The position numbers were made by a program, and so were the translations under genes. The notes under the pieces were generated by a model, which worked only from the letters and a program-made list of their open reading frames with translations, was not told where the DNA came from and ran no database searches. From positions 1 to 43,689 of IMG/VR virus record IMGVR_UViG_3300045988_038444: 43,689 nucleotides of DNA; one strand, given 5' to 3'. The DNA comes from a virus. Its lineage: Duplodnaviria > Heunggongvirae > Uroviricota > Caudoviricetes. Shown here piece after piece: positions 3,402 to 30,176 of the stretch (position 1 is its first letter; every line of letters starts with the position of its first letter).

Positions 3402-3744
3402 ACTCTGTTACATTGCCGGGCCTTATCGTGCTGATTGTGCGCTTAAAACATCCCGTAACGTGTCGCGCGCTGAACAGGCAGGTAAACGACTTGCTTTACA
3501 ACGTCCGGGGTGGTTCCCGGTTATCCCTCACAAGAACACCGAATTGTGGGACTTTGACGGCGGTTTACGCAATATACAACCCGAATACTACTTGTCAGGC
3601 ACATTAGAAGTTATGCGCCGTTGTGATGCCGTTCTGGTACTTCCTGATTATCGTCGTTCGTCCGGGACTATTGCGGAAATTGCAGAAGCTGAACGTCTGG
3701 GTATTCCTGTGTATTACAGTGTGGAGAGTATCCCACATGGTTGA
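3394..3744 (+). CDS. Nucleoside 2-deoxyribosyltransferase-like (DUF4406-like) protein (116 aa)
   Basis: Start trimmed to ATG 3394 with AGGA 8 nt upstream. The N-terminus has YIAGPYRAD and the segment VLVLPDYRRSSGTIAEIAEAERLGIPVY. Confidence 0.5.
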   Translation: MIKLCYIAGPYRADCALKTSRNVSRAEQAGKRLALQRPGWFPVIPHKNTELWDFDGGLRNIQPEYYLSGTLEVMRRCDAVLVLPDYRRSSGTIAEIAEAERLGIPVYYSVESIPHG

Positions 3745-4516
3745 TGTTAAGTTATTTAATCAAGATTGTTTGTTCATGATGAACTTCATTACTGAAAAAT
3801 CTATTGATTTAATTCTTACAGATCCTCCGTATGGTACAACTGCTTGCAAATGGGATTCGATAATAGATTTAGATTTAATGTGGTCAAATTTAAATCGAAT
3901 CATTACGGATAAAGGGGCAATCGTTCTTACGGCAACACAACCATTTGCAAGTATTTTAGTAAATTCAAACATCAAAATGTTTAAATACGATTGGGTGTGG
4001 AATAAATCAAAACGAACTGATTTTGTAAGAGCAAAACTAAAACCAATGGGTGGTCACGAAAGCGTTTTGGTTTTCAGTAAAGGTTCTGTTGCGAATGGTG
4101 CATCTTCAATGATGAACTATTACCCACAAGGTTTGAAACGTATTAATAAAGTAGCTAAAAACGGCGGCGGTGGTTCTGGTTTTTTGGGTCGTAATGGTGA
4201 AAATTTAGGACCAAATAACAAGCTACACAAACCTACGTATATTCAAGAATTTACAGGATACCCATGCACTCAATTGAATATTCAGAGTGAGAATAAAACA
4301 GTTCATCCCACGCAAAAACCTGTAGAGTTAATGGAATATCTTATTTTAACTTACACAAAAGAAGGTGATACGGTTTTAGATTTCACAATGGGTAGTGGAA
4401 CAACAGGTGTTGCTGCCGTGAAAACTAATCGTAATTTTATCGGTATAGAGTTAGATAAAGAATATTTCGAAATTGCTAATAAACGTATTAATTTGGCATT
4501 GATGGGTATTTACTAA
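3737..4516 (+). CDS. DNA methyltransferase (N6-adenine/N4-cytosine, beta-class order: motif IV DPPY before motif I FxGSGTT)
   Basis: Start trimmed to ATG 3737 with GGAGAG SD. Motifs ILTDPPYGT and DFTMGSGTTGVAA; C-terminal NFIGIELDKEY. Confidence 0.8.
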   Translation: MVDVKLFNQDCLFMMNFITEKSIDLILTDPPYGTTACKWDSIIDLDLMWSNLNRIITDKGAIVLTATQPFASILVNSNIKMFKYDWVWNKSKRTDFVRAKLKPMGGHESVLVFSKGSVANGASSMMNYYPQGLKRINKVAKNGGGGSGFLGRNGENLGPNNKLHKPTYIQEFTGYPCTQLNIQSENKTVHPTQKPVELMEYLILTYTKEGDTVLDFTMGSGTTGVAAVKTNRNFIGIELDKEYFEIANKRINLALMGIY

Positions 4517-4531
4517 CAAAGAGGATTGCTT

Positions 4532-4765
4532 ATGTCCACAATCGTTGAATTCAACCCTATGGATCCTGCTAAACGCCCGACAGGACGCTTTGCAAGATTG
4601 CCACAAACACGCGAACAGTTTTTTCCATTGTTAAACATGCGAGGGATTAAAACAGACCCACACGGGTTGATAGGAACATCCTTGTTTATGTACCGGACTG
4701 AATATCCGGTTCCTGCATCGTGGATTGAAGTATCGGTTGAAGATTTACTTAAGACTGTCTACTAA
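4532..4765 (+). CDS. Hypothetical protein (77 aa)
   Basis: ATG 4532 with GAGGA SD; its 3' end overlaps the converging o-spanin gene. Confidence 0.4.
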   Translation: MSTIVEFNPMDPAKRPTGRFARLPQTREQFFPLLNMRGIKTDPHGLIGTSLFMYRTEYPVPASWIEVSVEDLLKTVY

Positions 4766-4993
4766 CGCATTATGCATAGTTGCACATTTGAAATAAATAT
4801 CTAACCACTGGTCATTAACATCTGTTGAATCATTTCCTGTCAGACCGTTCAGCCGTGGAAGGTTTTCGGTCTGACACTTCTGAACTAATGCGGCCTGATA
4901 AACGGGCTTCTGCTTCGGTAACTCGTTCGTTGTACAGGCGTTGATATTCAGAAGTAAGACACTCATTACGAAAAACAGTATTAGTCTTTTCAT
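4745..4993 (-). CDS. Outer-membrane spanin (o-spanin, Rz1-like lipoprotein), partly embedded in the i-spanin gene in another frame
   Basis: Signal peptide MKRLILFFVMSVLLLNINAC with an INAC lipobox; overlaps 4830..5228. Confidence 0.55.
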   Translation of the reverse strand: MKRLILFFVMSVLLLNINACTTNELPKQKPVYQAALVQKCQTENLPRLNGLTGNDSTDVNDQWLDIYFKCATMHNALVDSLK

Positions 4994-5228
4994 GTCGTAT
5001 TTCCACGATTTTAGTATTCTGTGACCAGCCAGCTAAACCACGAAGTACATCATCCGCCAGTTCCTGTTGTGCCTTTAACCGTTGTTGTTCCCGTTGTGCA
5101 TCGTCTAAACGTTCCTGACGTTCTTCATTTACCCGTACTTTATATCCCGCGTGGTAACACGTATACGCACCTACGCTTAACACAAGAACGGTCGCAACAA
5201 CGGTGATTAACACACTACGGGTTGTCAT
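4830..5228 (-). CDS. Inner-membrane spanin (i-spanin, Rz-like)
   Basis: N-terminal TM helix LITVVATVLVLSVGAY followed by a charged coiled-coil; classic overlap with the o-spanin. Confidence 0.6.
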   Translation of the reverse strand: MTTRSVLITVVATVLVLSVGAYTCYHAGYKVRVNEERQERLDDAQREQQRLKAQQELADDVLRGLAGWSQNTKIVEIRHEKTNTVFRNECLTSEYQRLYNERVTEAEARLSGRISSEVSDRKPSTAERSDRK

Positions 5229-5445
5229 TTGGCGTACCTCGTTGTTTATCTACAGCGATTTTTTTAGCACCAACATACTGACCTATACAGAAACCGAAAT
5301 AGGTTAACAACACTGTATCATCAAGTGTGCGGTCCACGGCCTGGTAAATCAGAATGCCTGTTACCACGAGGAAGCCTAAAGCCGCTTGTGCGCGGCTTAA
5401 AGAGATCCCCCCGGTTGTGTTACGTAATATACTGAATTTATCCAT
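5215..5445 (-). CDS. Holin-like small membrane protein (2 TM, 76 aa)
   Basis: Start trimmed to ATG 5445 (MDKFSIL...). Two hydrophobic helices; sits immediately downstream of the endolysin. Confidence 0.4.
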   Translation of the reverse strand: MDKFSILRNTTGGISLSRAQAALGFLVVTGILIYQAVDRTLDDTVLLTYFGFCIGQYVGAKKIAVDKQRGTPNDNP

Positions 5446-5455
5446 GATTGTTATC

Positions 5456-5845
5456 TCACGCGGGATATTTCGCATGTGGTAACTGGAAGTGTGGACCATC
5501 TTTCAGTGTTTTCCAGTCACCACCCCATTCAACAGGGATATTCAGTTCTTTTGCAGCCTGTTTAAATGCAGTGGCAATTTGTTCGTAATACTTCCACTCC
5601 CACGACCCGGCAGATGTAGGATAAGCAAATACATCCACGGCGTGACCCGAAATATGGCGACTGTTCATCGTCTGACTTTTACCTGCAGCAACCAGTTGTC
5701 GTTGTCGTTCAACAGTTCGTAAACCTTCTGTGATACCGAAATCAACGGGTGATAACTGAAGTGCCCGACGCACGATTTTCACAAGATCTGAATTAACCCC
5801 TTTCAGATTATTTTCACTTCTCTGACTGAATTTAAAGTTACTCAT
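5456..5845 (-). CDS. Endolysin, L-alanyl-D-glutamate peptidase (M15-like, T5 Lys-type)
   Basis: SRHISGHAVD zinc-binding motif and the general similarity pattern of T5-type endolysins. Confidence 0.75.
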   Translation of the reverse strand: MSNFKFSQRSENNLKGVNSDLVKIVRRALQLSPVDFGITEGLRTVERQRQLVAAGKSQTMNSRHISGHAVDVFAYPTSAGSWEWKYYEQIATAFKQAAKELNIPVEWGGDWKTLKDGPHFQLPHAKYPA

Positions 5846-6165
5846 TGCTTACTCCCGGTTTTACGTTGTTCCGCTTTCAAACCTTCAATAACAACTTTCA
5901 GGTCATTTGTTGACTGTGTTAGCTCTTTAACACTGGTGAGGATTTCAGCGTTCTGTGTTGCCTGATATTCAATTTTGATATCATGGACATCTACACGGGA
6001 TTCCACTCGTTTTGCCAGATTGAGCGCCTCGTGCGCATAGGTTTTTGCATCTACAATATCTTTTTCATTAGAATTGATTTGGTTTTGAGTTACCCCGTAA
6101 CCTACCAACCCCGTGGCAACAAATGCTATTATAGGCCAATACCTCAACACTGGGTTATCAGACAT
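5842..6165 (-). CDS. Lysis-associated membrane protein (holin/antiholin candidate, 107 aa)
   Basis: N-terminal TM helix then coiled-coil. It is the first gene of the lysis cassette, with AGGAG SD; the divergent tail-fibre ATG is only 27 bp away. Confidence 0.4.
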   Translation of the reverse strand: MSDNPVLRYWPIIAFVATGLVGYGVTQNQINSNEKDIVDAKTYAHEALNLAKRVESRVDVHDIKIEYQATQNAEILTSVKELTQSTNDLKVVIEGLKAEQRKTGSKQ

Positions 6166-6191
6166 TGTTCTACACTCCTGGAGACTTAAAG

Positions 6192-9164
6192 ATGGCTAAC
6201 TGTAACGATTATATCAGTGCTGATGATTTGAAAACAGGCAAACAAGCGATTTTACATATTGAACACGTTGCGAAAAGTCGTGATGCTAACGGTAATCATG
6301 CGTTGGATGTTACCGATACGATCCGTGATCAATCAGTTACCAACAAGACGCTTGATGGTTTAGAAAACCTGTACAATCAGGCTATATCTCAGGTTGGCTA
6401 TATCACAATGGATAGCTTCGAAGATGGCGCGACATTAACATTGCCTAACCAGGTGTTGCGATATAAGTCGACAGGAGAATATTACCGATGGGACGGTGAA
6501 TTTCCTAAAACCGTTTCTTCTGGTTCAACACCTGAAACTGCTGGTGGCGTTGGTCTTGGCGCGTGGGTTAGTGTTGGTGACGCTTCATTAAGAAGCCAGG
6601 TTTCTGACCCTGATGGCGCAACAAAATATCCAGATTTGCAGATCGCAAGATGGAGAGACACATTCGACCCGCGCGGGTGGAATGCAAAAGGTGATGGGGT
6701 CACCGATGACACCTCAGCGCTTAATGGCGTATTAAACGCCGCACCAGTTGGTCAGAAAATTAATGGCAATGGGAAGACATATAAGGTCACATCCCTGCCT
6801 GACATTAGTAGATTCGTCAATACTCGTTTTGTATATGAACGTATTCCTGGTCAGCCTCTTTTTTATGCTTCTGAAGATTTTATCCAGGGACAGTTATTTA
6901 AAATTACAGATACACCGTGGTACAACGCCTGGACGCAGGATAAAACGTTTGTATATGACAATGTCATCTATGCGCCTTTTATGGCTGGAGACCGCCATGG
7001 TGTAAATAACCTCCATGTTGCATGGGTTCGCTCAGGAGATGACGGGAAGACCTGGACAACGCCGGAATGGCTTACAGATTTACATGAAAACCATCCCACA
7101 GTTAACTATCACTGCATGAGTATGGGGGTTGTCAGAAATCGCCTTTTTGCTGTAATTGAGACGCGGACCGTGAGAGGAAATAAACTGCAGGTTGCAGAGT
7201 TGTGGGATCGCCCAATGAGTCGCAGCCTTCGCGTTTATGGTGGTATAACGAAAGCAGCAAATCAGCAAGTCGCTTATATTCGCATTACTGATCACGGATT
7301 ATTTGCTGGTGATTTTGTCAACTTCTCAAACTCTGGTGTTACAGGTGTTACCGGGAATATGACGGTGACTACTGTTATTGATAAAAATACTTTTACAGTT
7401 ACGACGCAAAATACCCAGGATGTGGATCAGAATAACGAGGGTGGATACTGGAGTTTTGGTACATCATTTCACTCGTCACCATGGAGAAAAACCAGTCTTG
7501 GAACTATTCCTTCTTTTGTTGACGGAAGCACTCCTGTTACTGAGATTCACAGTTTTGCGACGATTAGCGATAACAGTTTTGCTGTTGGCTACCATAATGG
7601 TGATATTGGTCCACGCGAGCTTGGGATACTCTATTTCTCTGATGCTTTCGGTTCTCCTGGTAGCTTTGTTCGCAGACGCATACCTGCAGAATATGAGGCG
7701 AATGCATCTGAGCCATGTGTAAAATATTATGATGGCATTCTGTATCTGACGACCAGGGGGACATTAAGTACTCAACCCGGTAGTTCATTGCACAGAAGCT
7801 CTGATTTAGGTATATCATGGAATTCTCTTCGCTTCCCAAATAATGTTCATCACTCAAACCTTCCTTTTGCCAAAGTTGGCGATGAGCTGATTATTTTTGG
7901 CAGTGAGCGCGCATTTGGTGAGTGGGAAGGAGGAGAACCTGATAACCGTTATGCAGGAAACTATCCAAGAACATTTATGACCAGAGTTAACGTCAATGAG
8001 TGGAGTCTGGATAATGTAGAGTGGGTTAATGTTACTGATCAGATTTATCAGGGCGGAATAGTTAACTCTGCGGTTGGTGTTGGTTCAGTTTGTATCAAAG
8101 ACAACTGGCTGTACTACATTTTCGGTGGGGAAGACTTTCTAAACCCATGGAGCATAGGGGATAACAACAAAAAATATCCTTATGTTCACGATGGTCACCC
8201 GGCTGATTTGTATTGTTTCAGGGTGAAAATTAAACAGGAAGAATTTGTTTCAAGGGATTTTGTCTACGGAGCCACTCCTAACAGAACGCTTCCTACTTTT
8301 ATGTCGACGTCAGGCGTGAGGACGGTTCCTGTACCCGTTGATTTCACAGATGATGTTGCCGTCCAGTCACTGACTGTCCATGCAGGTACATCAGGACAAG
8401 TTCGCGCGGAAGTCAAACTTGAGGGTAATTACGCCATTATTGCGAAGAAAGTACCGTCTGATAATGTTACCGCTCAGAGATTAATCGTTAGCGGCGGTGA
8501 AACAACGTCTTCAGCAGATGGTGCAATGATAACGTTGCATGGTTCCGGAAGCAGTACTCCACGTCGCGCGGTATATAACGCACTCGAACATCTTTTTGAG
8601 AACGGAGATGTTAAACCTCATCTTGATAATGTAAATGCTCTTGGTGGGCCTAGCAACCGTTTCACCACTGCATACCTCGGAAGCAACCCTATTGTTACTT
8701 CTAACGGAGAGAAGAAAACGGAGCCGGTAGTTTTTGATGATGCTTTCCTGGATGCCTGGGGTGACGTTCACTACATCATGTACAAGTGGTTAGATGCTAT
8801 TCAACTGAAAGGCAATGATGCTCGTATTCACTTCGGGGTTATTGCTCAGCAAATTCGTGATGTATTCATTGCACATGGTCTGATGGACGAAAACAGTACG
8901 GATTGTCGTTATGCCGTTCTGTGCTATGACAAGTATCCACGGATGACCGATATGGTATTTTCGCACAATGAAATCGTTGAACACACTGACGATGAGGGTA
9001 ATGTCACTACCACGGAAGAACCTGTATACACCGAGGTGGTTATTCACGAAGAGGGTGAGGAATGGGGTGTTCGGCCTGACGGAATTTTCTTTGCTGAAGC
9101 TGCTTATCAGCGAAGAAAACTGGAAAGAATCGAAGCCAGACTTTCTGCTCTTGAACAGAAGTAA
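6192..9164 (+). CDS. Tail fibre / putative endosialidase (endo-N-acetylneuraminidase) with a C-terminal intramolecular chaperone (peptidase S74-like) domain
   Basis: Two Asp-box (BNR) motifs, SGDDGKTW (~7030) and SSDLGISW (~7795). C-terminal ...DAWGDVHYIMYKWLDAIQLKGNDARIHFGVIAQQIRDVF...RLSALEQK is typical of autocleaving chaperone domains of endosialidases and T5 pb1. Start trimmed to ATG 6192 (GGAGA SD). Confidence 0.75.
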   Translation: MANCNDYISADDLKTGKQAILHIEHVAKSRDANGNHALDVTDTIRDQSVTNKTLDGLENLYNQAISQVGYITMDSFEDGATLTLPNQVLRYKSTGEYYRWDGEFPKTVSSGSTPETAGGVGLGAWVSVGDASLRSQVSDPDGATKYPDLQIARWRDTFDPRGWNAKGDGVTDDTSALNGVLNAAPVGQKINGNGKTYKVTSLPDISRFVNTRFVYERIPGQPLFYASEDFIQGQLFKITDTPWYNAWTQDKTFVYDNVIYAPFMAGDRHGVNNLHVAWVRSGDDGKTWTTPEWLTDLHENHPTVNYHCMSMGVVRNRLFAVIETRTVRGNKLQVAELWDRPMSRSLRVYGGITKAANQQVAYIRITDHGLFAGDFVNFSNSGVTGVTGNMTVTTVIDKNTFTVTTQNTQDVDQNNEGGYWSFGTSFHSSPWRKTSLGTIPSFVDGSTPVTEIHSFATISDNSFAVGYHNGDIGPRELGILYFSDAFGSPGSFVRRRIPAEYEANASEPCVKYYDGILYLTTRGTLSTQPGSSLHRSSDLGISWNSLRFPNNVHHSNLPFAKVGDELIIFGSERAFGEWEGGEPDNRYAGNYPRTFMTRVNVNEWSLDNVEWVNVTDQIYQGGIVNSAVGVGSVCIKDNWLYYIFGGEDFLNPWSIGDNNKKYPYVHDGHPADLYCFRVKIKQEEFVSRDFVYGATPNRTLPTFMSTSGVRTVPVPVDFTDDVAVQSLTVHAGTSGQVRAEVKLEGNYAIIAKKVPSDNVTAQRLIVSGGETTSSADGAMITLHGSGSSTPRRAVYNALEHLFENGDVKPHLDNVNALGGPSNRFTTAYLGSNPIVTSNGEKKTEPVVFDDAFLDAWGDVHYIMYKWLDAIQLKGNDARIHFGVIAQQIRDVFIAHGLMDENSTDCRYAVLCYDKYPRMTDMVFSHNEIVEHTDDEGNVTTTEEPVYTEVVIHEEGEEWGVRPDGIFFAEAAYQRRKLERIEARLSALEQK
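6204..6216 (-). promoter_or_regulatory. Candidate extended -10 promoter (CACTGATATAAT) for the lysis cassette, located inside the first codons of the tail-fibre gene
   Basis: The minus strand reads ...cagcacTGaTATAATcg... with the motif about 35-45 nt upstream of ATG 6165. The same motif recurs upstream of two other minus-strand genes. Confidence 0.4.
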
Positions 9165-9167
9165 TAA

Positions 9168-9197
9168 ACAAAACCCCGCTTCGGCGGGGTTGTTTTA
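9168..9197. terminator. Bidirectional rho-independent terminator
   Basis: Hairpin AACCCCGCTTCGGCGGGGTT flanked by an A-run and a T-run, lying between the convergent tail-fibre and SSB genes. Confidence 0.7.
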
Positions 9198-9200
9198 TCA

Positions 9201-9611
9201 TCAGAACGGAATGTCGTCTGAAAAGTCCATCGGAGGCTCATTGCCTCCTTGTGGGCTTTGTTGTTTTTGTGGCTGCTGTTGCTGATTTGTTACCCATCCG
9301 CCTTGAGGTTGTTGGCCTGATTGCTGGCGCGGTTGCTGACCAGAATCATCACGTTTACCACCAAGCATCTGCATAACGCCACCCATCTGTGGAATGACAA
9401 TCTCCGTAGTGTATCGGTCTACGCCGTTGCTGTCAGACCACTTACGAGTGTGCAGCTGTCCTTCGATATAAACCTGTGAACCTTTGCGAAGGTATTCTCC
9501 TGCAACTTCCGCAAGTTTCCCGAAGATGACTATGCGATGCCATTCAGTCTGTTCCTTCTTTTCTCCTGTTTGCTTGTCTTTCCACTGCTCAGATGTTGCA
9601 ACAAAAAACAA
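9201..9611 (-). pseudogene. ssb: N-terminally truncated SSB (residues ~35-178 of an E. coli-like SSB, with DDIPF tail); TTG start, no SD
   Basis: [39 protein letters not shown]...[11 protein letters not shown] is ~75-80% identical to E. coli SSB by recall. An in-frame TAA lies 9 nt upstream of the TTG, so the first OB-fold strand is absent. Confidence 0.6.
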
Positions 9612-9632
9612 GCCAACGGCTTAGATAACTTG

Positions 9633-12164
9633 TTATAAATCATCCTGATAATAACGTGCATCGTAATTGATGCACGTTAAACCTACCTGATAGTTATTAT
9701 CCCTTCCTGACGGTTCCATACTCTGAACAAGCATTGCTAATTTGCTACGCTCATCATCAGCACGGATTACATATGCTGTACGGTCACGCAACCATCCTGT
9801 ATAAATTTCTTCAGATGGCTGGTAAGCCATTATCACGGAAAATTTATCATCCCCGGCAGTTACAGGAATGTTTTCAAGTGTTCCCAGTCGGTGTGTTAAC
9901 GTTATGCTGTATGTATTACCCGTGGCGAACGTAACAGGATCGCTAAGAATAAGTGTTAAACCATCAACATCGACTACAATGCCTTCATGCTGTTTCATAC
10001 GAGTGTTATCAATCATATCCACACGCATGCCTGGAGTAGCCTGTAACCCGATACTAAGCGCTGTACATTCGTGAGTAATACGTTGGTAACGCAACTTATT
10101 CATCTCACGATTAGCGCGAATATTTGCAAGATATCGCGATTGACATGCGACAAGATCTATCTTATTGAGATTTGTTTCTTCACCTTTAGTTACATACAAA
10201 TACGATTTTTCATCATGATCGAAGTATTTAACCTGAACACCCGTATATTCTTTAGGTGGTGCGAAAGAACGTGTGCGTTTATCACTGTCAGGGATCTTAA
10301 ACGCGTGACCAAACTGCATTGCTGACTGGTCCTGCGGTAATTCAGGCCAGAAATACAATACACTACCGATCTGATACGGTTTAACATTCACCGTGTTACA
10401 GATAGTGTCCAATCCTTCTTCGTACGTCGTACTGTTGTTATCAAATGTATAACCAACTTCAATTGCTCGTTGGTCACCAAAATATTCAAGAATTTGTGCC
10501 TGAACAGCATATAAAGCATCACGATCAATGGTGTCTAATGTGCGACGACCAAATAAAGGATCTGTATGCATTGACATTACAACATCTGCAAAATTACTAC
10601 TTGCAACACCATCGTATACGCGCGTTGCAATCATGTTTAATTTACGTTCTTTTTGTTTCAGTGCAGCGTTTGTTGCTTTTGTCACTGTATGAATCAATGT
10701 CACATCACCATAGGAACGCGGAGAAACGTTCGTTATAGCGTATAAATCACGCCACTTGATATTATCAACAACAGATCCTTCAAAATCTTTATCTGTGTTT
10801 GATAGTCGTCTTACAGACACGTTGACAGGGCCGTCAAACGGGTTATCCACAATTAACGAATTACCTACGGCTTCTGTATAACGACCGCGGACAGACATAG
10901 AGTGTGTCACATTCGCTTTCACACCGTTCGGGTCCGACAAAACTACCTGGAAGTCACAGGTAAACGGATAAATGTCACCATCAGTTTTATACACTCCATT
11001 CTGTGCATAAAGATTAATCATCAACTTATCCGCACTGTCAATCAGATAAGGTCCGACAATATACGGCGTGGTACTGTCAAGAGACGGTGAAAACTTGTAT
11101 AAAATACTTCCGCTTCCTTCAATGGTTTCAAGTTCCCAGTAACCATCGTTTCGCAAATAAGCCTGTGTATATGCAGCCTGACCACTTTCAGACAGAGCAT
11201 CCCAACCTTCACGACCAGTAGTATCAATGATTAACGTATTCTCATCTGCATAAATAACGTCATATTCACCGGATAGATCATTACGTACATACGTGTTTAA
11301 CGGTAAAGTATTAGGTGTAAAACTGTAAAATTGTGATAAACGAATTTTACTACCGATTGGTGCACGTTCTGACCAGTCGATTGTAGTGTTATCGTCGCTG
11401 GAAATCGTAGTATCAATTTCACCTGTGCTGTAAATTTTAAAATTTGCTTTACTAATATCAGCATAGTTTGGTGGCTTAACTTCAGATCCGTCTGCTTCGT
11501 TCGATGACTTAGCAACCATGATCGGAAAAGTGTTAATATCAATCGCACCACCGATATTCATATATGGAGAACCATACCCTGGTGCATTACCTTTTTTATA
11601 AAAGTCTAATTTTTCACCGCTGATATTTACCGCAGGTGTAATACCATCACGAACGTCTTCGACTTCGTATTCACCAGCACCCAGACACAGAAACTGAACT
11701 TCGTATTCTGTTCGGTCAATGAAGATTCGGTAATCCATTAACAAATCAGGGTATACCAGTACACGACCACGAATATCAGAGATACGCTCACCCGGTCGCG
11801 AAGCATTAGTACGCCCCTGAAGCGCGTTGTTAGACGACGCTGAACGTGAGTTCTTAAGATTAGCCGATGCACTGGTATTCGGCATGAACAATTTTAAAAT
11901 GGGGTTTAAAATTGTGCTAATAACTTTCGTTATTGCACTAACCACTCCACCTTTTGGTAGTTCATAAATATGATAAACAGCGTCAGAATCAGTCAATACG
12001 CTGGGGTCAGTAACCCACTTTTGGGTAATATTTTCATCGTTTTTATAAATCAGTAACCCACGCGGGCGAACAGTACCCACGGGCCAGCGTTTCAGCATCC
12101 ATTCACCAAAGTCAACGTTATCAGCGTGTTCAACAGGATTAGTATGATAGATGACTTTAGACAC
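9633..12164 (-). CDS. Central tail fibre / tail tip host-specificity protein (lambda J-like, 843 aa)
   Basis: Large protein directly downstream of the K-like, L-like and M-like genes and the tape measure; called on synteny only. Confidence 0.5.
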   Translation of the reverse strand: MSKVIYHTNPVEHADNVDFGEWMLKRWPVGTVRPRGLLIYKNDENITQKWVTDPSVLTDSDAVYHIYELPKGGVVSAITKVISTILNPILKLFMPNTSASANLKNSRSASSNNALQGRTNASRPGERISDIRGRVLVYPDLLMDYRIFIDRTEYEVQFLCLGAGEYEVEDVRDGITPAVNISGEKLDFYKKGNAPGYGSPYMNIGGAIDINTFPIMVAKSSNEADGSEVKPPNYADISKANFKIYSTGEIDTTISSDDNTTIDWSERAPIGSKIRLSQFYSFTPNTLPLNTYVRNDLSGEYDVIYADENTLIIDTTGREGWDALSESGQAAYTQAYLRNDGYWELETIEGSGSILYKFSPSLDSTTPYIVGPYLIDSADKLMINLYAQNGVYKTDGDIYPFTCDFQVVLSDPNGVKANVTHSMSVRGRYTEAVGNSLIVDNPFDGPVNVSVRRLSNTDKDFEGSVVDNIKWRDLYAITNVSPRSYGDVTLIHTVTKATNAALKQKERKLNMIATRVYDGVASSNFADVVMSMHTDPLFGRRTLDTIDRDALYAVQAQILEYFGDQRAIEVGYTFDNNSTTYEEGLDTICNTVNVKPYQIGSVLYFWPELPQDQSAMQFGHAFKIPDSDKRTRSFAPPKEYTGVQVKYFDHDEKSYLYVTKGEETNLNKIDLVACQSRYLANIRANREMNKLRYQRITHECTALSIGLQATPGMRVDMIDNTRMKQHEGIVVDVDGLTLILSDPVTFATGNTYSITLTHRLGTLENIPVTAGDDKFSVIMAYQPSEEIYTGWLRDRTAYVIRADDERSKLAMLVQSMEPSGRDNNYQVGLTCINYDARYYQDDL

Positions 12165-16398: not shown

Positions 16399-17310
16399 AT
16401 GAGTAGGAAACGTTTAACCACAGAAGAGTTTATCACGCGTGCCCGTGAAGTTCATGGGCACAAATACGATTACTCACTAGTGGAGTATTTGAATTGGCGC
16501 ACACCTGTGAAAATCATCTGTCCTATACATGGAGTGTTTGAACAAATTCCTAATAATCATTTAAAAGGACGCAAGTGTTTATTCTGTGCAGGAAATCAAC
16601 AATCAAATACCAATGAATTTATCACAAGGGGGCGCGAAGTTCATGGGGGTAAGTATGGTTATTCGTTGGTGAAATATAAAGACTCTCGGACCAAAGTGAA
16701 AATCATTTGTCCAATACACGGAATGTTTGAACAACGTCCATATAGTCACTTGCAGCAAAAAGCAGGTTGCCCACAATGTGCTTGGGAACAATTGTCTGAA
16801 CAAAGACGTTTATCCGCCGAAGAATTCATTACTCGTGCTCGCGAAGTTCACGGGGACCGTTACGACTATTCGTTGGTGGAGTATGTTAACAATTCCACCC
16901 CTGTAAAAATTATTTGTTCAGAACACGGTGTGTTTGAACAGACACCGGGCAATCACACATTTATGAAAGCTGGCTGTCCCCAGTGCGCTGAAACAGGTTT
17001 TAATCCGTCAGAACCCGGCACGTTATATGTACTCGCTGATGATAAACAGTATCCCACTCTGATTAAAATTGGTATTACAAACGACTTAAAACAGCGACTA
17101 CGACAACTACAACGACGAACTCCGCATCTTGTGGTTAAACTTGTATCGTATCCGTTCCCACATGGCGCTGACGCTTACAAACTGGAACAAGAGGTACACA
17201 AGGTCTTTCACGAACTTAATGCGCGTCTCAAAGGCTTTGACGGTGCTACAGAGTGGTTTAAATACTCTCCTGCAATCCTCGATTACATAAATGAAAAAGC
17301 CCGGAACTAA
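16399..17310 (+). CDS. Homing-endonuclease-like protein HE-1: three N-terminal ~60-aa zinc-ribbon repeats + C-terminal T5orf172/GIY-YIG-like domain
   Basis: Three repeats of EEFITRAREVHGxKYDYSLVEY...KIICPIHGVFEQ...GCPQC. C-terminal GTLYVLADDKQYPTLIKIGITNDLKQRLRQLQRR. Inserted between the G/G-T chaperone genes and the tape measure. Confidence 0.6.
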   Translation: MSRKRLTTEEFITRAREVHGHKYDYSLVEYLNWRTPVKIICPIHGVFEQIPNNHLKGRKCLFCAGNQQSNTNEFITRGREVHGGKYGYSLVKYKDSRTKVKIICPIHGMFEQRPYSHLQQKAGCPQCAWEQLSEQRRLSAEEFITRAREVHGDRYDYSLVEYVNNSTPVKIICSEHGVFEQTPGNHTFMKAGCPQCAETGFNPSEPGTLYVLADDKQYPTLIKIGITNDLKQRLRQLQRRTPHLVVKLVSYPFPHGADAYKLEQEVHKVFHELNARLKGFDGATEWFKYSPAILDYINEKARN

Positions 17311-17330: not shown

Positions 17331-18025
17331 CTTCATCTCGACAACACGTGCAGACCGCAATGCTGTTAACAATTTCCATAGGAACTGTACATCAACGTTG
17401 TACACCCGTGCGTAACGTTCACAGGCAACCCAATCACTATTTATCAAATCAAGATAAGCATACCAATAAAAAACAGCATCAGGTCGCAATTCAGGACGTT
17501 TCTGTACAACAACCGGAACAGATATACCACGTGCAGCCGCCCCTTGTGTAACCCAGTCCAGGTCGTCCCCGTCTGTCTTATCGTTCCACAAGAGGAAGTC
17601 GATCAGTTTTTTTCAATCTGTTTTTCCCATTCGTCCTGGAAGAATGCGGAATTAATTGCGAACTGAATAACACGGCTGTAGATCACCTGACCAAAACGTT
17701 CATCACTTAACAATTCAATAGCTTCTTCGACACTGAATGGTTCCGGTTTGTCATCTTCACCAATCAGTTTCCAGTCCAGCATAAGAACGTTAGCCACAAA
17801 CTTAACACCTTCTGGTGTATATTCCTGATTCCACAGTTTTTCAAAGAAGTTTTCAGACAACACACCGTTCTGTTTTACATAGTCCGCGACTGTTACGTTA
17901 TATACCTGGTTAGCGGTGTTCAGGTTCAACACGGTGATACTGAAATTTTCATTTAAAATCAGTTCAGCAGAAGACTTCAGCACCAGTGGAGAAAGTGCTT
18001 TTTTCAGATGGTCAAACTTTGACAT
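17307..18025 (-). CDS. Tail assembly chaperone G-T fusion via programmed -1 frameshift at AAAAAAC (~17606-17612)
   Basis: The -1 frame after the heptamer runs KKLIDFLLWNDKTDGDD... to 17307. This matches the canonical G/GT arrangement. Confidence 0.5.
17603..18025 (-). CDS. Tail assembly chaperone G
   Basis: 140-aa acidic protein upstream of the tape-measure region. It ends at a slippery A AAA AAC (plus strand 17606-17612) just before its stop. Confidence 0.55.
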   Translation of the reverse strand: MSKFDHLKKALSPLVLKSSAELILNENFSITVLNLNTANQVYNVTVADYVKQNGVLSENFFEKLWNQEYTPEGVKFVANVLMLDWKLIGEDDKPEPFSVEEAIELLSDERFGQVIYSRVIQFAINSAFFQDEWEKQIEKN

Positions 18026-18165: not shown

Positions 18166-18789
18166 ATGGCGATTATTAACATGGGTTGGCATAGTTCTGT
18201 TTTTGAAGGAAATGTTAAACTCCTGGAAGGGGCATATAGTCCTATCCATCGTAATGATATTGGTGGCGATTACCCACCATCTTATTTTCTATACGAAACT
18301 GATCATGGGTGCTGTATCAAAGAACGTGAACGTAACGGTTACCATGATTCAGATTTTGAAATGTTAATATGGAACCCTGAAACAAAAAAGCGCTTCATGG
18401 TATACATTTGCAACTACCCGTGGTTGGTGTTATCCATGCTATGGTTCACGCCCAGATGCAACACCAGAAGTTTTAGAAGCATATAATATTTATGAACAAC
18501 AGCAAGAGGAAAAACGGCAACGTTATTGCAAAATAAAAAGAGTAAACAAGCAACGCAAACTGAACGCACAGTTTAGATTAATAGTACGTGAATTTGGTGT
18601 TGATCGCGAACAAGTTGAAAAACTTTATAAATTATATCACCCAGATATGTTCCCTGTATTTTGTAAACTTCTTAACAGTAATTTACGTTCTGATTTCCGT
18701 AAAAGTTTACGTAAACAACTAGTTGATTGGTTAAAAGGGAACGGTAAGTACGATAAACCATTTTCACCTAAACAAATTCAGTATTTATG
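18166..18789 (+). pseudogene. Split gene: N-terminal ORF 18166..18486 and a +1-frame continuation open 18368..18789, junction at an A6 run (18384-18389)
   Basis: Second frame open for ~140 codons with no ATG and ending 3 nt before the terminator; the two frames overlap only around gaaacAAAAAAgcgc. Confidence 0.4.
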
Positions 18790-18839: not shown

Positions 18840-20297
18840 TCATGCTGTAGGCAGATATGGGAACAAGCTGAACCCAATCATAAAACCGATCGACTCTTCT
18901 TCGTGGGCGTTACCGCTAACAGTGACTTTCACTTTTTCGCCCGTCACAAGGTTTTTGGAACCGTCGCCCAGTGTCATCGCAGGAATGTTAACCACGATTG
19001 CACCGTCACCGTTTACCCCGGCAAGTTCGAAGTTGACTGTTGCGTTGTTACGGATCGCAGCCAGTACAGCACCGTCTGTCATCACCGTTTCAGTTTCCAT
19101 TGTGATTTCCAGGTTACCGATGTTGGTAAACGCAGCACCCATCACGCCCAGCACGTTTTCACCTGACACGTTGTTATTCACGGTGACAGTAACGTCTTTC
19201 AGGAACGTACTGAGTCCACTATCATCGATCCCGGTCAGTCGTACACGGTTCAGGTTCGTTACGGTGTTGTACGCTTCGTTAGCCACGAATTCAACATACC
19301 CGGAACCCGGCAGCGCGGTTTCTGACGGTGCTGATAAATCCTGTGCTACAAACGTCAGATCCATTGTCATTTTTTCAGTCAACGGTGCGTTGATCGTCAT
19401 CTGGTTTGCAGCTACAGCACGCGCATATTCATAAATAACAGGTGTCGTGTTGTAACGTACTTCCATTGTGTATTCAGTTTTAACGAACTCTGCAGAGTCA
19501 ACAGGAACGTTTCGAACAAAACTGGAAACAAATAAACGTACAGTTTTACCCGTACCTTCTTCAGTGGTGAATTCACTGTTAGCGAGAGTCAGAATATGAT
19601 CACCAACCATAGTCACACGGGCCATTTTACTGGTTACGGACTGTGTTAGACCATCAATATAAACATACTGTCCCGGTACTAAACCCAGTGTGGAAAAATC
19701 CAGGGTGGTAGACGTCAACTGACCATTACTGTTAACAGCGATTTCACCAGACGCTGCAGCATGCCCCACGAGATATAAACGAGCTTCAGCAGGCGGTGAC
19801 GCTTCGGCACTAAGCCCTGACACGTTGATAGCAGTAGTGGTACTATCAGCGCCTACAGTTTTCAAACCGTTGTTTGCAGCCAGTGTAAAACCTGTCGCAT
19901 AAACAAGAGCACCTTTAGGTAATGCCGCATCAAGAGTAGTAACGTTATAAGCATCAGCGCCAACACTGGTAACGTCAATATCAATTGCACCAGCACCGAC
20001 CCATTTACTATAAAGGAATCCGTCACCCCAGTAGCGGAACGTATCAAGTGTCAGGTCTGTCTGAAAGCCCGGTGCAACTTCAACGTTAGTTACCGTGCCT
20101 TTACGTGCAGATCGGTCCGTACTGATCGGTGTACGCTGAGTCTTTGTAATATCAGCACTGTAAGAACTGATTTCATTCGGTTGTTGAACCGTCCAGGGTG
20201 TACCAAAAACAGGTTCACAGACTTTTGCCACACTGAGTCGTGTTGCGTTTACATCAGTCGCAGGTGTTTGCGAACATTTAAAAATTGATTCAGCCAT
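18840..20297 (-). CDS. Major tail (tube) protein, 485 aa, with a C-terminal extra (Ig-like?) domain
   Basis: Abundant Thr/Val-rich beta protein at the position between the tail completion protein and the chaperones. Confidence 0.6.
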   Translation of the reverse strand: MAESIFKCSQTPATDVNATRLSVAKVCEPVFGTPWTVQQPNEISSYSADITKTQRTPISTDRSARKGTVTNVEVAPGFQTDLTLDTFRYWGDGFLYSKWVGAGAIDIDVTSVGADAYNVTTLDAALPKGALVYATGFTLAANNGLKTVGADSTTTAINVSGLSAEASPPAEARLYLVGHAAASGEIAVNSNGQLTSTTLDFSTLGLVPGQYVYIDGLTQSVTSKMARVTMVGDHILTLANSEFTTEEGTGKTVRLFVSSFVRNVPVDSAEFVKTEYTMEVRYNTTPVIYEYARAVAANQMTINAPLTEKMTMDLTFVAQDLSAPSETALPGSGYVEFVANEAYNTVTNLNRVRLTGIDDSGLSTFLKDVTVTVNNNVSGENVLGVMGAAFTNIGNLEITMETETVMTDGAVLAAIRNNATVNFELAGVNGDGAIVVNIPAMTLGDGSKNLVTGEKVKVTVSGNAHEEESIGFMIGFSLFPYLPTA

Positions 20298-20759: not shown

Positions 20760-21184
20760 TGATTAAACCTCACCATTATTCCGGCTTTTAATATAGCACG
20801 TTCGACAAACCCGGAAGGTGTCTGTGTACTGCTACCACCATTGAGAACCCCAATGTAAGGAACGTTGTTAGTAATATGCAGTTCCTGACCATTAACTTTA
20901 ATACTGCTGATAGTGACTGTATCCTGTTCGATACGTGCTTTACTGGCTTCAACATTACCTGTTGGTGTATCAGGACTATTAGCGGGTTGCCCCTGATCGA
21001 ACCACCAGTTGTTGCTTGCCCAGCCACTCAATATTGGTGTACCATCAGGAGGCTCACTTATGAGTATGTTACGTAGTGTTAAAACATATCTAATGACTTG
21101 ACGATCCGTAAAATCTTGTAAGTCGGCTTTTATGTCTTTAAACACTCCAGTAATACGATTTATATCATTGATTTTGCTAGTCAT
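20756..21184 (-). CDS. Head-tail joining protein (HK97 gp10-like)
   Basis: Start trimmed to ATG 21184 to avoid overlap with the divergent HE-2; contains ISEPPDGTPILSGWASNNWW. Confidence 0.4.
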   Translation of the reverse strand: MTSKINDINRITGVFKDIKADLQDFTDRQVIRYVLTLRNILISEPPDGTPILSGWASNNWWFDQGQPANSPDTPTGNVEASKARIEQDTVTISSIKVNGQELHITNNVPYIGVLNGGSSTQTPSGFVERAILKAGIMVRFNQ

Positions 21185-21206
21185 TGACAAACCTAAAGGT
21201 AGAAAA

Positions 21207-22103
21207 ATGGGCGGTAAAAGACTAACCAAAGAACAACTAGAGCATAACATAAAAGATATTTGTCAATCAAAAAATTACAAATTTATAAAATGGAAAGACG
21301 GGTTTAAAAACAAAGAATCACGAATTATTTTATCTTGTGTTACACACGGGGAATGGGACACTAAATGTTATCATTTTTTGAATGGTTCTGGTTGTCCGAT
21401 CTGTGGTGGAACACGAACCACAAAAGGGTTAAGAATTGCACAGATTAAAGACAGTTTAACAAATTCTAAATCAAAGTTTATTAAATTTAAAACTAATTTT
21501 CAAAATGGAAATTCTGTTTGTTTGCTGAGCTGTATTGATCATGGTGGATGGGAGACAACAGTCAATAGACTAATCTTTACATCTGTTGATTGCCCGTTGT
21601 GTATAACGAATAGACAGAAAACTAAACAAGAACGAGAAATTGAAATAACAAATAGATGTAAAGAAACAGGGTTGTTTTTTAATAAGATATTCGACGAACA
21701 TCCGACATGGAAATCTAAAATATCATTAAAGTGTTCAACGCATGGTGATTTTGTTACAACAATTAATTCTTTTCTTAGTAAACAAAAAGGTTGTCCAAAC
21801 TGTAGTAAAACAGGGTTTAAAGCTGGTAAGTATGCAACACTTTATGTCTTGCGGTCCACATGCGGTCGTTACGTTAAAATAGGTATCAGTAATTGTGTAG
21901 AGCAAAGAATTAATACACTTCGTAGAAAAACACCATTTGATTTTCAAGTAATAGAAAAATTGAATGGACACGGGGCAACCATTCGTTCACTTGAAAAAGA
22001 TTTTCATTCTCATTTTGAATCTGCAGGATTAACCGGGTTCGATGGTTGTACAGAGTGGTTAAAATGGAATCCAAATATAACCACTCTGATACGGATGTTA
22101 TAG
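21207..22103 (+). CDS. Homing-endonuclease-like protein HE-2: three CxxHG...CPxC zinc ribbons + C-terminal T5orf172/GIY-YIG-like domain
   Basis: CVTHGEWDT..GCPICGG, CIDHGGWET..DCPLC and CSTHGDFVT..GCPNC. C-terminal ATLYVLRSTCGRYVKIGISNCVEQRINTLRRK...FDGCTEWLKWNPNITTLIRML. Start trimmed to ATG 21207. Confidence 0.6.
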   Translation: MGGKRLTKEQLEHNIKDICQSKNYKFIKWKDGFKNKESRIILSCVTHGEWDTKCYHFLNGSGCPICGGTRTTKGLRIAQIKDSLTNSKSKFIKFKTNFQNGNSVCLLSCIDHGGWETTVNRLIFTSVDCPLCITNRQKTKQEREIEITNRCKETGLFFNKIFDEHPTWKSKISLKCSTHGDFVTTINSFLSKQKGCPNCSKTGFKAGKYATLYVLRSTCGRYVKIGISNCVEQRINTLRRKTPFDFQVIEKLNGHGATIRSLEKDFHSHFESAGLTGFDGCTEWLKWNPNITTLIRML

Positions 22104-29178: not shown

Positions 29179-30137
29179 CACGGGATAACATTTATATCTT
29201 GAGGGAGAGAATAAGCAACCCGGCAACGACAATTAATCACGTTCGCAGCACTACCGTTAGGATCACGAGGAAACATAAGTGGTCCTAACGGCGTTGAAAA
29301 CGGTCTGTCCATTGGTATCCAGCCGTTCGTTTCACCTGTAGAAATATGCGCATCACGTGTCCGACCATCTTTTCTATATAACCAGCGCTTCAGCAATTCA
29401 TTACTAATAGCCCCGGTAATCTGTCCCTGACGTATTGCCTGATCCTGACCAACTGATACAGCACGAAGTGATTCAGTACGCGCTATTGTCTCTGTACGCT
29501 GTTTTACATAACGCAAGCGTGTCTGTTCGATTATCTGGTCAATCTTCACCTGTGATAGTTTCCCGGCACTTACAGCGTTCTTCGCACTGTCTGTAACAGT
29601 GGTCAGACTGTTCACATAACCTGCTTCACCTTTTTCCAGTGCTGATCGTAGACGTTGAACCGTCATTTCCTGCCGTGTGGTTAACCCTATTGATGATCGA
29701 AAATCACGGGCTATCTGACGCGGATTTCGTCCGGTTACCATACCCTGGTTAACTGCAATCTGAACAGCTTTGACTGTTTCGTCACTGACTTCACGGATCA
29801 GTTGTCCGACATAGTTGTTGATATATGTGCTGACCTGTGGGGTGACCAGACTGAACACAACCGGACCTGTTACAGCCGCTTTCGGTAGAACCTGAACGAC
29901 TACACGACCTGATTCAGCGATCGCATCTTCAATAACCGGGCGCAACTGTGCACTAAGTTCATCAGGAAGTGTTTCAAGAATGGGGAGTAACCCGGCAATA
30001 CCTTGGGTTTCAATAATGTATTCCAGGTTGGCTAACGACTCACTACGACGCACGTTTTCCCACACAACATCAAGTGCTTCGCGAATGCGAGCGTCATACT
30101 TGTCTGAAATATCCGGGTATGGGTCTTTAGTAGCCAT
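29178..30137 (-). CDS. Head morphogenesis protein (SPP1 gp7 / Mu F-like)
   Basis: Family-typical segment ...NYVGQLIREVSDETVKAVQIAVNQGMVTGRNPRQIARDF...; size 319 aa. Confidence 0.65.
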   Translation of the reverse strand: MATKDPYPDISDKYDARIREALDVVWENVRRSESLANLEYIIETQGIAGLLPILETLPDELSAQLRPVIEDAIAESGRVVVQVLPKAAVTGPVVFSLVTPQVSTYINNYVGQLIREVSDETVKAVQIAVNQGMVTGRNPRQIARDFRSSIGLTTRQEMTVQRLRSALEKGEAGYVNSLTTVTDSAKNAVSAGKLSQVKIDQIIEQTRLRYVKQRTETIARTESLRAVSVGQDQAIRQGQITGAISNELLKRWLYRKDGRTRDAHISTGETNGWIPMDRPFSTPLGPLMFPRDPNGSAANVINCRCRVAYSLPQDINVIP

Positions 30138-30176
30138 AAAAAAGCCTCAGTTAACACACTGAGGCCGATTATATCA
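30137..30176 (-). promoter_or_regulatory. Candidate late promoter (ext -10 CACGTGATATAAT, plus 30168-30176) followed by a hairpin GCCTCAGTGTGTTAACTGAGGC + U6 abutting the ATG of the head morphogenesis gene
   Basis: The hairpin also acts as a terminator for upstream minus-strand transcripts; the GAGG SD lies in its 3' arm. Confidence 0.4.

Follow-up and report, generated by a model that had tools for sequence, protein, structure and literature searches.

Endosialidase tailspikes form a well-established family of phage enzymes, and their modular exchange among phage backbones and their self-cleaving chaperone are well established too; the study cited by the GenBank record of phage CUS-3 is said to be an example of this work. 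They are found in podoviruses such as K1F (endoNF, gp17; PDB 1v0e, 3gvl, and 3gw6) and CUS-3 (siaK1), a P22-like prophage of E. coli K1 strain RS218, and also in SP6-like phages such as K1E and K1-5. Among siphoviruses, the Kagunavirus phages K1G, K1H, and JSSK01 have spikes that combine the four endosialidase Pfam domains with a Peptidase_S74 domain. These spikes are reported to be only approximately 46-48% identical to those of K1F and K1E, and K1-specific activity has been shown for JSSK01 (PMC11641727). Here, we describe a spike gene of this family at positions 6192-9164 of a viral contig of 43,689 nucleotides (nt) (IMG/VR record IMGVR_UViG_3300045988_038444; the whole stretch analyzed is called the window), in a phage that belongs to another genus and genome type than the Kagunavirus phages. 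The best explanation overall, to which we assign a probability of about 0.85, is that this gene encodes a single receptor-binding tailspike, a K1 endo-α-2,8-sialidase, of an uncultured 9NA-like E. coli siphovirus.

Domain structure and predicted activity of the tailspike

The spike open reading frame (ORF) runs on the plus strand from an ATG at 6192 to a stop codon at 9162-9164 and encodes 990 amino acids (aa). A sequence-only reading of the window had taken this protein for a polysialic acid depolymerase on account of two Asp-boxes and an S74-type self-cleaving chaperone, and the searches bear this identity out. All four endosialidase Pfam domains and Peptidase_S74 were found, both Asp-boxes are present in the sequence, and a PDB sequence search aligned the endoNF structures 1v0e and 3gvl continuously over aa 160-836 (E = 0) and the endoNF chaperone structure 3gw6 to aa 717-990 (E = 3.5e-148). 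Individual residues were mapped by aligning the protein with K1F gp17, CUS-3 siaK1, and the IME207 fiber. In this alignment, H350, E581, R596, and R647 of endoNF, the first of which we take to be an active-site residue, correspond to H269, E507, R522, and R573, and all four are conserved. The Glu581/Arg596/Arg647 triad of endoNF has been named before (PMC2955717). Over its whole length, the protein shares 69% aa identity with K1F gp17 and 81% with CUS-3 siaK1, and the GenBank entry of the latter cites direct-assay evidence for endo-alpha-sialidase activity. The S74-type chaperone could be placed in the same way: S911 and K916 of endoNF, a Ser/Lys dyad that presumably catalyzes the cleavage of endoNF-type chaperones, align with S837 and K842, and the annotated end of mature K1F endoNF, residue 910, aligns with T836. 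The predicted last residue of the mature protein is T836, with the chaperone freed by a cut before Ser837, autoproteolysis itself being a prediction. Every sequence-level feature examined places the protein in the endosialidase tailspike family, and from the 99.4% nucleotide identity of its core to CUS-3 siaK1 we infer that it cleaves alpha-2,8-linked polysialic acid.

In sequence, aa 1 to ~135 comprise a tail-attachment anchor of the 9NA-like family plus the Tail_spike_N domain, and aa 165-836 form an endoNF-type catalytic unit made up of the extension, the propeller with its barrel, and the stalk, followed by the intramolecular chaperone at aa 837-990. By homology, the chaperone would aid trimerization and then cleave itself off before Ser837 by means of the Ser837/Lys842 dyad, and the mature spike would degrade the K1 capsule, so that the virion reaches the cell surface. 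The CUS-3 tailspike has the same domain set, catalytic residues, and Ser/Lys dyad, but it has an N-terminal region of its own (0-17% aa identity to the window anchor over aa 1-120), and its chaperone is just 37-77% identical to that of the window per 30-aa bin. Moreover, CUS-3 is a temperate podovirus, whereas the window phage is a lytic-type siphovirus. K1F gp17 also has the same architecture, with the boundary between the mature and C-terminal parts at the aligned Thr/Ser, but carries an extra N-terminal segment of ~75-90 aa, presumably a T7-type adaptor, that is missing in the window protein, and its core is only ~55-80% identical to the window core. K1F is again a podovirus, and its spike is co-oriented with all its other genes.

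A few observations weigh against a K1-specific enzyme. The stalk sialic acid-binding residue Q853 of endoNF is M779 in the window protein, although CUS-3 also has Met at this position. The phage is known from metagenomes only, and the host labels around the module are not uniform: IME207, which has a K1F-type spike and represents the source type of the segments flanking the catalytic core, is recorded as isolated on Klebsiella. Such findings would fit an endosialidase-like spike with another or a lost specificity (binding-only, K92, O-acetylated polysialic acid, or a non-E. coli capsule) in a phage that is not K1-specific. We consider this quite improbable, as the core is only 10 of 1789 nt away from siaK1, whose entry cites the direct assay, H269, E507, R522, and R573 are all conserved, the nearest backbones are those of E. 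coli phages, and matching genes are found in prophages of E. coli genomes, including those of APEC O18 and F11.

The record of IME207 (KX523699.2, 4819-7749) shows a discrepancy of its own. The phage is named a Salmonella phage and its recorded host is Klebsiella pneumoniae, while its tail fiber closely tracks K1F endoNF: measured bin by bin, its identity to the window protein follows that of K1F, and it has all of the catalytic residues. The host label of IME207, or else its real specificity, deserves checking.

The backbone was assigned by comparing region 9200-34000 with phage genomes. This region is 95.5% identical to Escherichia phage KarinMuster_Bas82 (Bas82) over 89% of its length and 81.5% identical to 9NA over 62%, and other Sashavirus and Nonanavirus genomes match too; by these matches, the backbone is that of a 9NA-like siphovirus (Nonanavirus/Sashavirus). 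In the tail tip protein, the final 200 aa are 98% identical to Bas82. The gene is a clear but ordinary member of a known enzyme family on a new 9NA-like backbone, and NCBI already lists near-identical metagenomic proteins under the name "endosialidase". Within the phage collection searched, no record covers at least 80% of the locus, and a literature search found no paper linking endosialidases with Nonanavirus or Sashavirus. With this locus, endosialidase cassettes extend to the rarely studied 9NA-like siphoviruses, beyond podoviruses (K1F and CUS-3) and Kagunavirus siphoviruses. K1-specific depolymerase spikes are in use for capsule typing and as tools for anti-virulence or phage therapy.

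The sequence-only reading had also described the spike as a module in reversed orientation and as the only late structural gene on the plus strand. The latter holds for the sizeable plus-strand ORFs of the late region that were scanned, among which the spike is the only recognizable structural gene; the others are two HNH homing endonucleases, one anti-repressor-like gene, and one of no recognized family. The plus-strand orientation is real as well, but it is not peculiar to this module, since it is common to the 9NA-like relatives. In all five that were examined (Bas82, AVIO78A, Sasha, 9NA, and Klebsiella phage KP13-27), plus-strand replication genes converge on a minus-strand lysis cassette (o-spanin, i-spanin, membrane protein, endolysin, and holin), which is followed by a gap of 26-28 bp and a plus-strand spike gene that converges on the minus-strand tail-tip gene. 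Because of this shared layout, we regard the orientation and the tight divergent junction as ancestral to the 9NA-like group. Inversion of a block consisting of the spike and a convergent SSB gene, derived from a Skatevirus-like donor, was considered and rejected, since the orientation is no different in 9NA, Sasha, AVIO78A, and KP13-27, none of which has the SSB fragment.

The loci of 9NA gp55, Sasha gp51, Bas82_0055, and AVIO78A_065 match the window in gene order, orientation, the 26-28 bp junction, and the N-terminal anchor, but their receptor-binding bodies are unrelated to that of the window after a homology break at ~6595, and the proteins are 647-683 aa long. Bas82 depends on the O16 O-antigen (PMC11990801). 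In IME207 and in the Skatevirus Bas77, the spike and SSB genes converge as in the window, but there the spike gene points the same way as the tail genes, and the SSB gene is complete. In addition, the core of IME207 is K1F-type, whereas that of the window is CUS-3-type.

Table 1. Coordinates of the spike gene, its predicted domains and mosaic segments, and adjacent features in the window
Feature	Position (nt)	Strand	Residues and remarks
Endosialidase tailspike precursor CDS	6192..9164	+	990 aa plus stop
Tail_spike_N (PF18668)	6381..6581	+	aa 64-130; Pfam E = 6.3e-19
End_N_terminal, N-terminal extension (PF12218)	6684..6884	+	aa 165-231; E = 2.6e-37
End_beta_propel, six-bladed (PF12217)	6885..8234	+	aa 232-681; E = 4.3e-231
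End_beta_barrel, inserted in propeller (PF12195)	7218-7466	+	aa 343-425; E = 8.2e-46
End_tail_spike, stalk (PF12219)	8235..8699	+	aa 682-836; E = 2.1e-77
Peptidase_S74 (PF13884)		+	aa 840-897; E = 8.7e-9
Asp-box 1, SGDDGKTW	7032..7055	+	aa 281-288
Asp-box 2, SSDLGISW	7797..7820	+	aa 536-543
Catalytic residues (by alignment)	6996-6998; 7710-7712; 7755-7757; 7908-7910	+	H269; E507; R522; R573
Cleavage dyad (by alignment)	8700-8702; 8715-8717	+	Ser837; Lys842
C-terminal intramolecular chaperone (predicted)	8700..9161	+	aa 837-990; S74, 3gw6, residue mapping
Backbone N-terminal anchor	6192..6494	+	aa 1-101; 100% to Bas82, 0/303 mismatches
Shuimuvirus IME207-type segment	6590..6845	+	96.5% nt identity, informative sites
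CUS-3 prophage-type catalytic core	6851..8639	+	99.44%, 10/1789 mismatches
IME207-type right segment	8648..9331	.	98.7%, 9/684 mismatches
Bas82-type backbone	9342-12164	.	93.3% nt identity
Divergent intergenic region, 26 nt	6166..6191	.	holds both Shine-Dalgarno sequences
Spike Shine-Dalgarno sequence, GGAG	6180-6183	+
Holin Shine-Dalgarno sequence, CTCC (GGAG on the minus strand)	6175-6178	-
Candidate lysis-cassette promoter, extended -10 TGATATAAT	6208..6216	-	spike codons 6-9; predicted start ~6201
Candidate spike promoter, extended -10 TGCTATTAT	6124..6132	+	holin codons 12-14; predicted start ~6139
Holin/antiholin, first lysis gene	5842..6165	-	PHROG 24402 holin, E = 2e-55
Remaining lysis cassette	4745..5845	-
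M15 endolysin	5456-5845	-
Membrane protein with two transmembrane domains	5215-5499	-
i-spanin	4830-5228	-
o-spanin	4745-4993	-
Bidirectional intrinsic terminator (predicted)	9172..9191	.	between convergent spike gene and SSB fragment
5'-truncated SSB gene fragment	9201..9611	-	homology to full-length phage SSB genes ends ~9602
J-like tail tip protein, backbone	9633..12164	-	last gene of minus-strand tail operon

Mosaic origin of the spike cassette

That the spike forms a host-range module, as the sequence-only reading had it, is supported, but with other boundaries: compared with the closest backbone, the sequence is swapped only after ~aa 102-133, and the right edge lies not at the terminator but beyond it, in the SSB gene fragment at ~9331. 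The mosaic was defined by means of 90-nt bins, runs of informative sites, and BLAST of segments, and by these measures the spike gene is a recombinant of at least four pieces (Table 1). The anchor identical to Bas82 is conserved in 9NA, Sasha, and KP13-27, and is presumed to attach the spike to the tail tip. In the catalytic core, 636 informative sites favor CUS-3 over IME207. The IME207-type right segment covers the part of the spike gene that codes for the chaperone, up to and including the stop codon, and extends over the terminator into the SSB fragment, of which it takes in the 3' half. Its spike-coding part is also 97.1% identical at the nucleotide level to the C-terminal domain of K1F. 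The left crossover is located within the Tail_spike_N domain (6495-6590), the second within the endosialidase N-terminal extension (6806-6851), the third at the conserved stalk end (8639-8648), and the rightmost within the ORF downstream of the terminator (~9331).

Spike genes of siphoviruses (Skatevirus-like), podoviruses (Kayfunavirus), and myoviruses (Kuttervirus) share the Tail_spike_N stretch at 70-84% nucleotide identity, and this stretch could for that reason plausibly act as a left arm of universal use in exchange. Among all loci gathered, at least 12 different spike bodies, ranging from 618 to 990 aa, were found on the same N-terminal anchor, indicating that the spike locus acts as a host-range cassette. 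On the prophage side, the stretch 6819-8767, which includes the core, matches spike genes of prophages in 187 of 5426 complete E. coli genomes, and CUS-3-type prophages presumably reside in K1 E. coli. Since the core is only ten bases away from the prophage gene, the phage may have grown in K1 hosts with a CUS-3-type prophage and recombined with it, with the Tail_spike_N coding stretch as left homology arm and the SSB fragment as right arm. The crossovers give an unusually legible history of capture, in which the core probably came from the prophage of a K1 host, and the homology arms would offer a practical route for retargeting 9NA-like phages.

Some relatives, represented by the metagenome loci L020 and L021, change their spike body after ~aa 55 (…TLDGFF…) and not at ~aa 135; the anchor thus offers at least two alternative exchange junctions.

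A mosaic of this kind might also arise when reads of a CUS-3 prophage are joined to a Sashavirus contig during metagenome assembly. The window is a metagenomic contig, and its crossovers lie in stretches conserved among endosialidase genes, where mis-joins can occur. However, the identical 990-aa protein with the same neighbors is present in assemblies of other samples (Logan SRR2565813 and ENA ERZ27304563), IMG/VR contig L015 has a variant that agrees at 975 of 990 residues and lies in the same surroundings, and there are ten further 990-aa cluster members of at least 90% identity on contigs of up to 56-58 kb. Because the same protein and neighbors recur in other assemblies and variants are found on separate contigs, an assembly chimera is very unlikely. 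Two of the ten cluster members are proteins from metagenome-assembled genomes in NCBI with the name "catalytic beta propeller domain of endosialidase".

The divergent junction and its candidate promoters

The mechanical ORF call of the spike gene begins upstream, with a TTG at 6165. We place the true start at the ATG at 6192, because a GGAG is located 8 nt upstream and because relatives differ by a 2-nt indel within 6166-6191; for the latter reason, this stretch is not coding. The divergent ATGs of the holin gene (6165, minus strand) and the spike gene (6192) are 27 bp apart, as noted before, with 26 nt between them. The near-palindrome that had been described here, CTCCTGGAG at 6175-6183, does contain both Shine-Dalgarno sequences, but it is not a palindrome in any conserved sense and consists of two abutting Shine-Dalgarno sequences. 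A role of CTCCTGGAG as RNA structure or operator was rejected, since the palindrome is not kept in relatives and the predicted leaders are no more structured than shuffled sequences (folding z = +0.8 and +1.1).

A lysis promoter had been proposed at 6204-6216, inside the first codons of the spike gene. Its position is corrected to 6208-6216 on the minus strand, where TGATATAAT forms the extended -10 of CACTGATATAAT (6208-6219), and comparison with relatives suggests that it may indeed be a promoter. A second candidate, TGCTATTAT on the plus strand, lies in the holin gene and faces the first; it would be a concrete candidate for the start of spike transcription, a point on which the sequence-only reading had left the choice between antisense read-through and an internal promoter. 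Whereas TGATATAAT matches the extended -10 consensus at 9 of 9 positions, the hexamer of TGCTATTAT matches at 5 of 6. The junction alignment comprised 780 columns and 12 distinct relatives from approximately five independent lineages; a metagenome scan for further relatives yielded only six loci. In this alignment, exactly one TGnTAnnnT is conserved on each strand, at 6208-6216 (minus) and 6124-6132 (plus), in 12 of 12 relatives and each pointing at the correct gene. As a control, 1024 patterns with the same mask gave a mean of 0.057 conserved hits, and only 4 of them reached 2. The string ATTATATCA is invariant in the 12 relatives while nearby synonymous sites vary: the third positions of spike codons 6-8 are frozen, and codons 3-5 and 9-13 all vary. 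Holin codon 13 is the rare ATA in every relative, and the plus-strand motif, which is TGCTATTAT in the window, TGTTATAAT in Sasha, and TGTTATGAT in 9NA and KP13-27, varies only at the N of TGn and at hexamer position 4. Both motifs were kept in the further loci examined (8/8).

These data would fit a model in which transcription of the spike and of the lysis genes begins from the facing extended -10 elements at 6124-6132 (plus) and 6216-6208 (minus), respectively, with leaders of ~53 nt for the spike and ~36 nt for lysis, and a 5' overlap of ~63 nt between the transcripts. Two minus-strand hairpins, a weak one at 9623-9609 and a strong one at 9191-9172, lie between the tail operon and the lysis genes and may isolate the latter. 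Since tail-operon transcripts meet these hairpins ahead of the antisense strand of the spike gene, the lysis cassette plausibly needs its own promoter.

Several results speak against such promoters. Neither candidate has a -35 hexamer, with at most 2 of 6 matches at a spacing of 16-18 nt, and a generic two-hexamer promoter scan listed neither of them; in the case of the 6208-6216 site this is because of the absent -35 hexamer. Extended -10 promoters do not require a -35 hexamer. The same scan found no excess of promoter-like sites in the region (9 versus 11.1 expected by chance), and TGNTATAAT occurs three times in the window versus 1.95 expected, which is within chance. Furthermore, the relatives represent only about five lineages, and conservation near the 5' ends of coding sequences could have other causes. 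It is possible, at somewhat less than even odds, that there are no embedded promoters. Spike mRNA would then come from the plus-strand replication operon, whose transcripts would run on across the antisense of the lysis cassette, and lysis mRNA either from antiterminated read-through of the tail operon or from some other promoter. In that case, amino acid, codon, or translation initiation constraints, such as AT-rich 5' codons, would explain the -10-like strings. In agreement with this alternative, no convincing plus-strand terminator separates ORF 4526-4765 from the spike gene: the sole candidate, a hairpin at 5239-5258 (+), is weak (-8.2 kcal/mol, z = -1.9), and 9NA and Sasha do not preserve its stem, only the T-run being conserved. 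Against it stand a motif that is the sole conserved occurrence on each strand, the outcome of the same-mask control, synonymous third positions that are frozen exactly inside the motifs with variation at the least constrained positions, and the hairpins that separate the tail operon from the lysis genes. On balance, we think that the embedded promoters are probably functional, and as a conserved facing pair they make a testable prediction on spike and lysis gene expression in the 9NA-like family.

Face-to-face promoter pairs are known from coliphage 186 (pR/pL) and P22 (Pant/Psar), where facing promoters tens of bp apart give overlapping 5' transcripts with possible transcriptional interference. 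Unlike these pairs, the window promoters are only predicted, both lie within coding sequence, and their presumed targets are two late functions instead of a switch between lysis and lysogeny. One could speculate that throughout the 9NA-like group such facing promoters produce overlapping 5' ends that include both ribosome-binding sites, so that RNA polymerase collision or antisense pairing couples or balances spike output and lysis timing, and that the SSB fragment is kept as a portable right arm for cassette swaps with Skatevirus-like and Shuimuvirus-like phages or is expressed as a decoy of the SSB C-terminal tail; we regard this combination as unlikely.

A phage-specific late promoter motif was also considered. 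There are three exact copies of TGATATAAT in the window, at 6208, 18631, and 30168, all on the minus strand, but they have no common flanking motif and their number is within chance, and the idea was therefore rejected. The copy at 18631-18639 lies in the long non-coding stretch that separates the major tail protein gene (ends at 18840) from the tail assembly chaperone genes (start at 18025) and may be an internal promoter. The third copy lies within 30137-30176 (-), upstream of a gene starting at 30137; the corresponding gene of 9NA has the annotation SPP1 gp7-like prophage assembly protein. Directly after this copy follows a hairpin with a T-run (GCCTCAG...CTGAGGCTTTTTT) that abuts the ATG, an odd order of promoter and then terminator before a start codon.

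Terminator, SSB fragment, and neighboring genes

The strong bidirectional terminator that had been noted after the spike gene is borne out by a hairpin with T-runs on both strands, termination itself being predicted. The hairpin has 8 pairs, 6 of which are G-C, and a TTCG loop, with folding energies of -16.6 and -16.8 kcal/mol on the two strands. On each strand z = -4.1, and none of 200 shuffled sequences folded as well.

The ORF at 9201-9611 is annotated "SSB" in relatives. Its product is 96% aa-identical to the SSB of IME207, aligned only from residue 35 of the latter (residue 36 of E. coli SSB), so that approximately 31-34 residues at the N-terminus, where the OB fold begins, are missing, while the acidic tip DDIPF is intact. 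The Pfam SSB match accordingly begins at profile position 28 of 104, and the N-terminal OB-fold domain is incomplete. Past ~9602, the sequence runs straight into a terminator-like hairpin after the tail-tip gene, a junction that is identical in Bas82. Because the start of the ORF falls in the U-tract of this upstream hairpin and has no Shine-Dalgarno sequence, expression of the fragment is doubtful. It is absent from 9NA, Sasha, AVIO78A, and the KP13-27 group, whereas the SSB gene of IME207 and of Skatevirus Bas77, which likewise converges with the spike gene, has its full length. In the simplest reading, an ancestor of the E. coli branch took the spike cassette together with the terminator and the 3' four-fifths of the SSB gene from a Skatevirus-like donor, and the fragment would since then have been the right-hand homology arm, in which the latest exchange may have ended near 9331. 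The fragment might be a fossil or serve as a homology arm, or it might be expressed and act as a decoy of the C-terminal tail of SSB.

The counterpart of the first lysis gene (5842-6165) has a holin annotation in Bas82 and a holin or antiholin annotation in Sasha. Rfam and tRNA scans across the whole window found no RNA genes. The two HNH homing endonuclease genes, at 16399-17310 (+) and 21132-22103 (+) (PHROG 681/559, E = 5e-85 and 4e-64), are opposite in strand to the surrounding blocks of tail and head-tail genes, and 9NA has no gene in the interval between the tape-measure and tail-chaperone genes where the first of them is located in the window. At the other end of the lysis cassette, the 3' ends of ORF 4526-4765 (+) and the o-spanin gene (4745-4993, -) overlap by 21 nt at 4745-4765; there is no terminator at this convergence, and the overlap is also present in Bas82, AVIO78A, and Sasha. 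Just upstream of the lysis genes lies an apparent second variable cassette with a DNA methyltransferase gene (3623-4516, +), which measures ~520 nt in Bas82 and 1182 nt in 9NA and Sasha, is an ORF of 297 aa in the window, and shows a drop in GC content to ~0.35-0.36.

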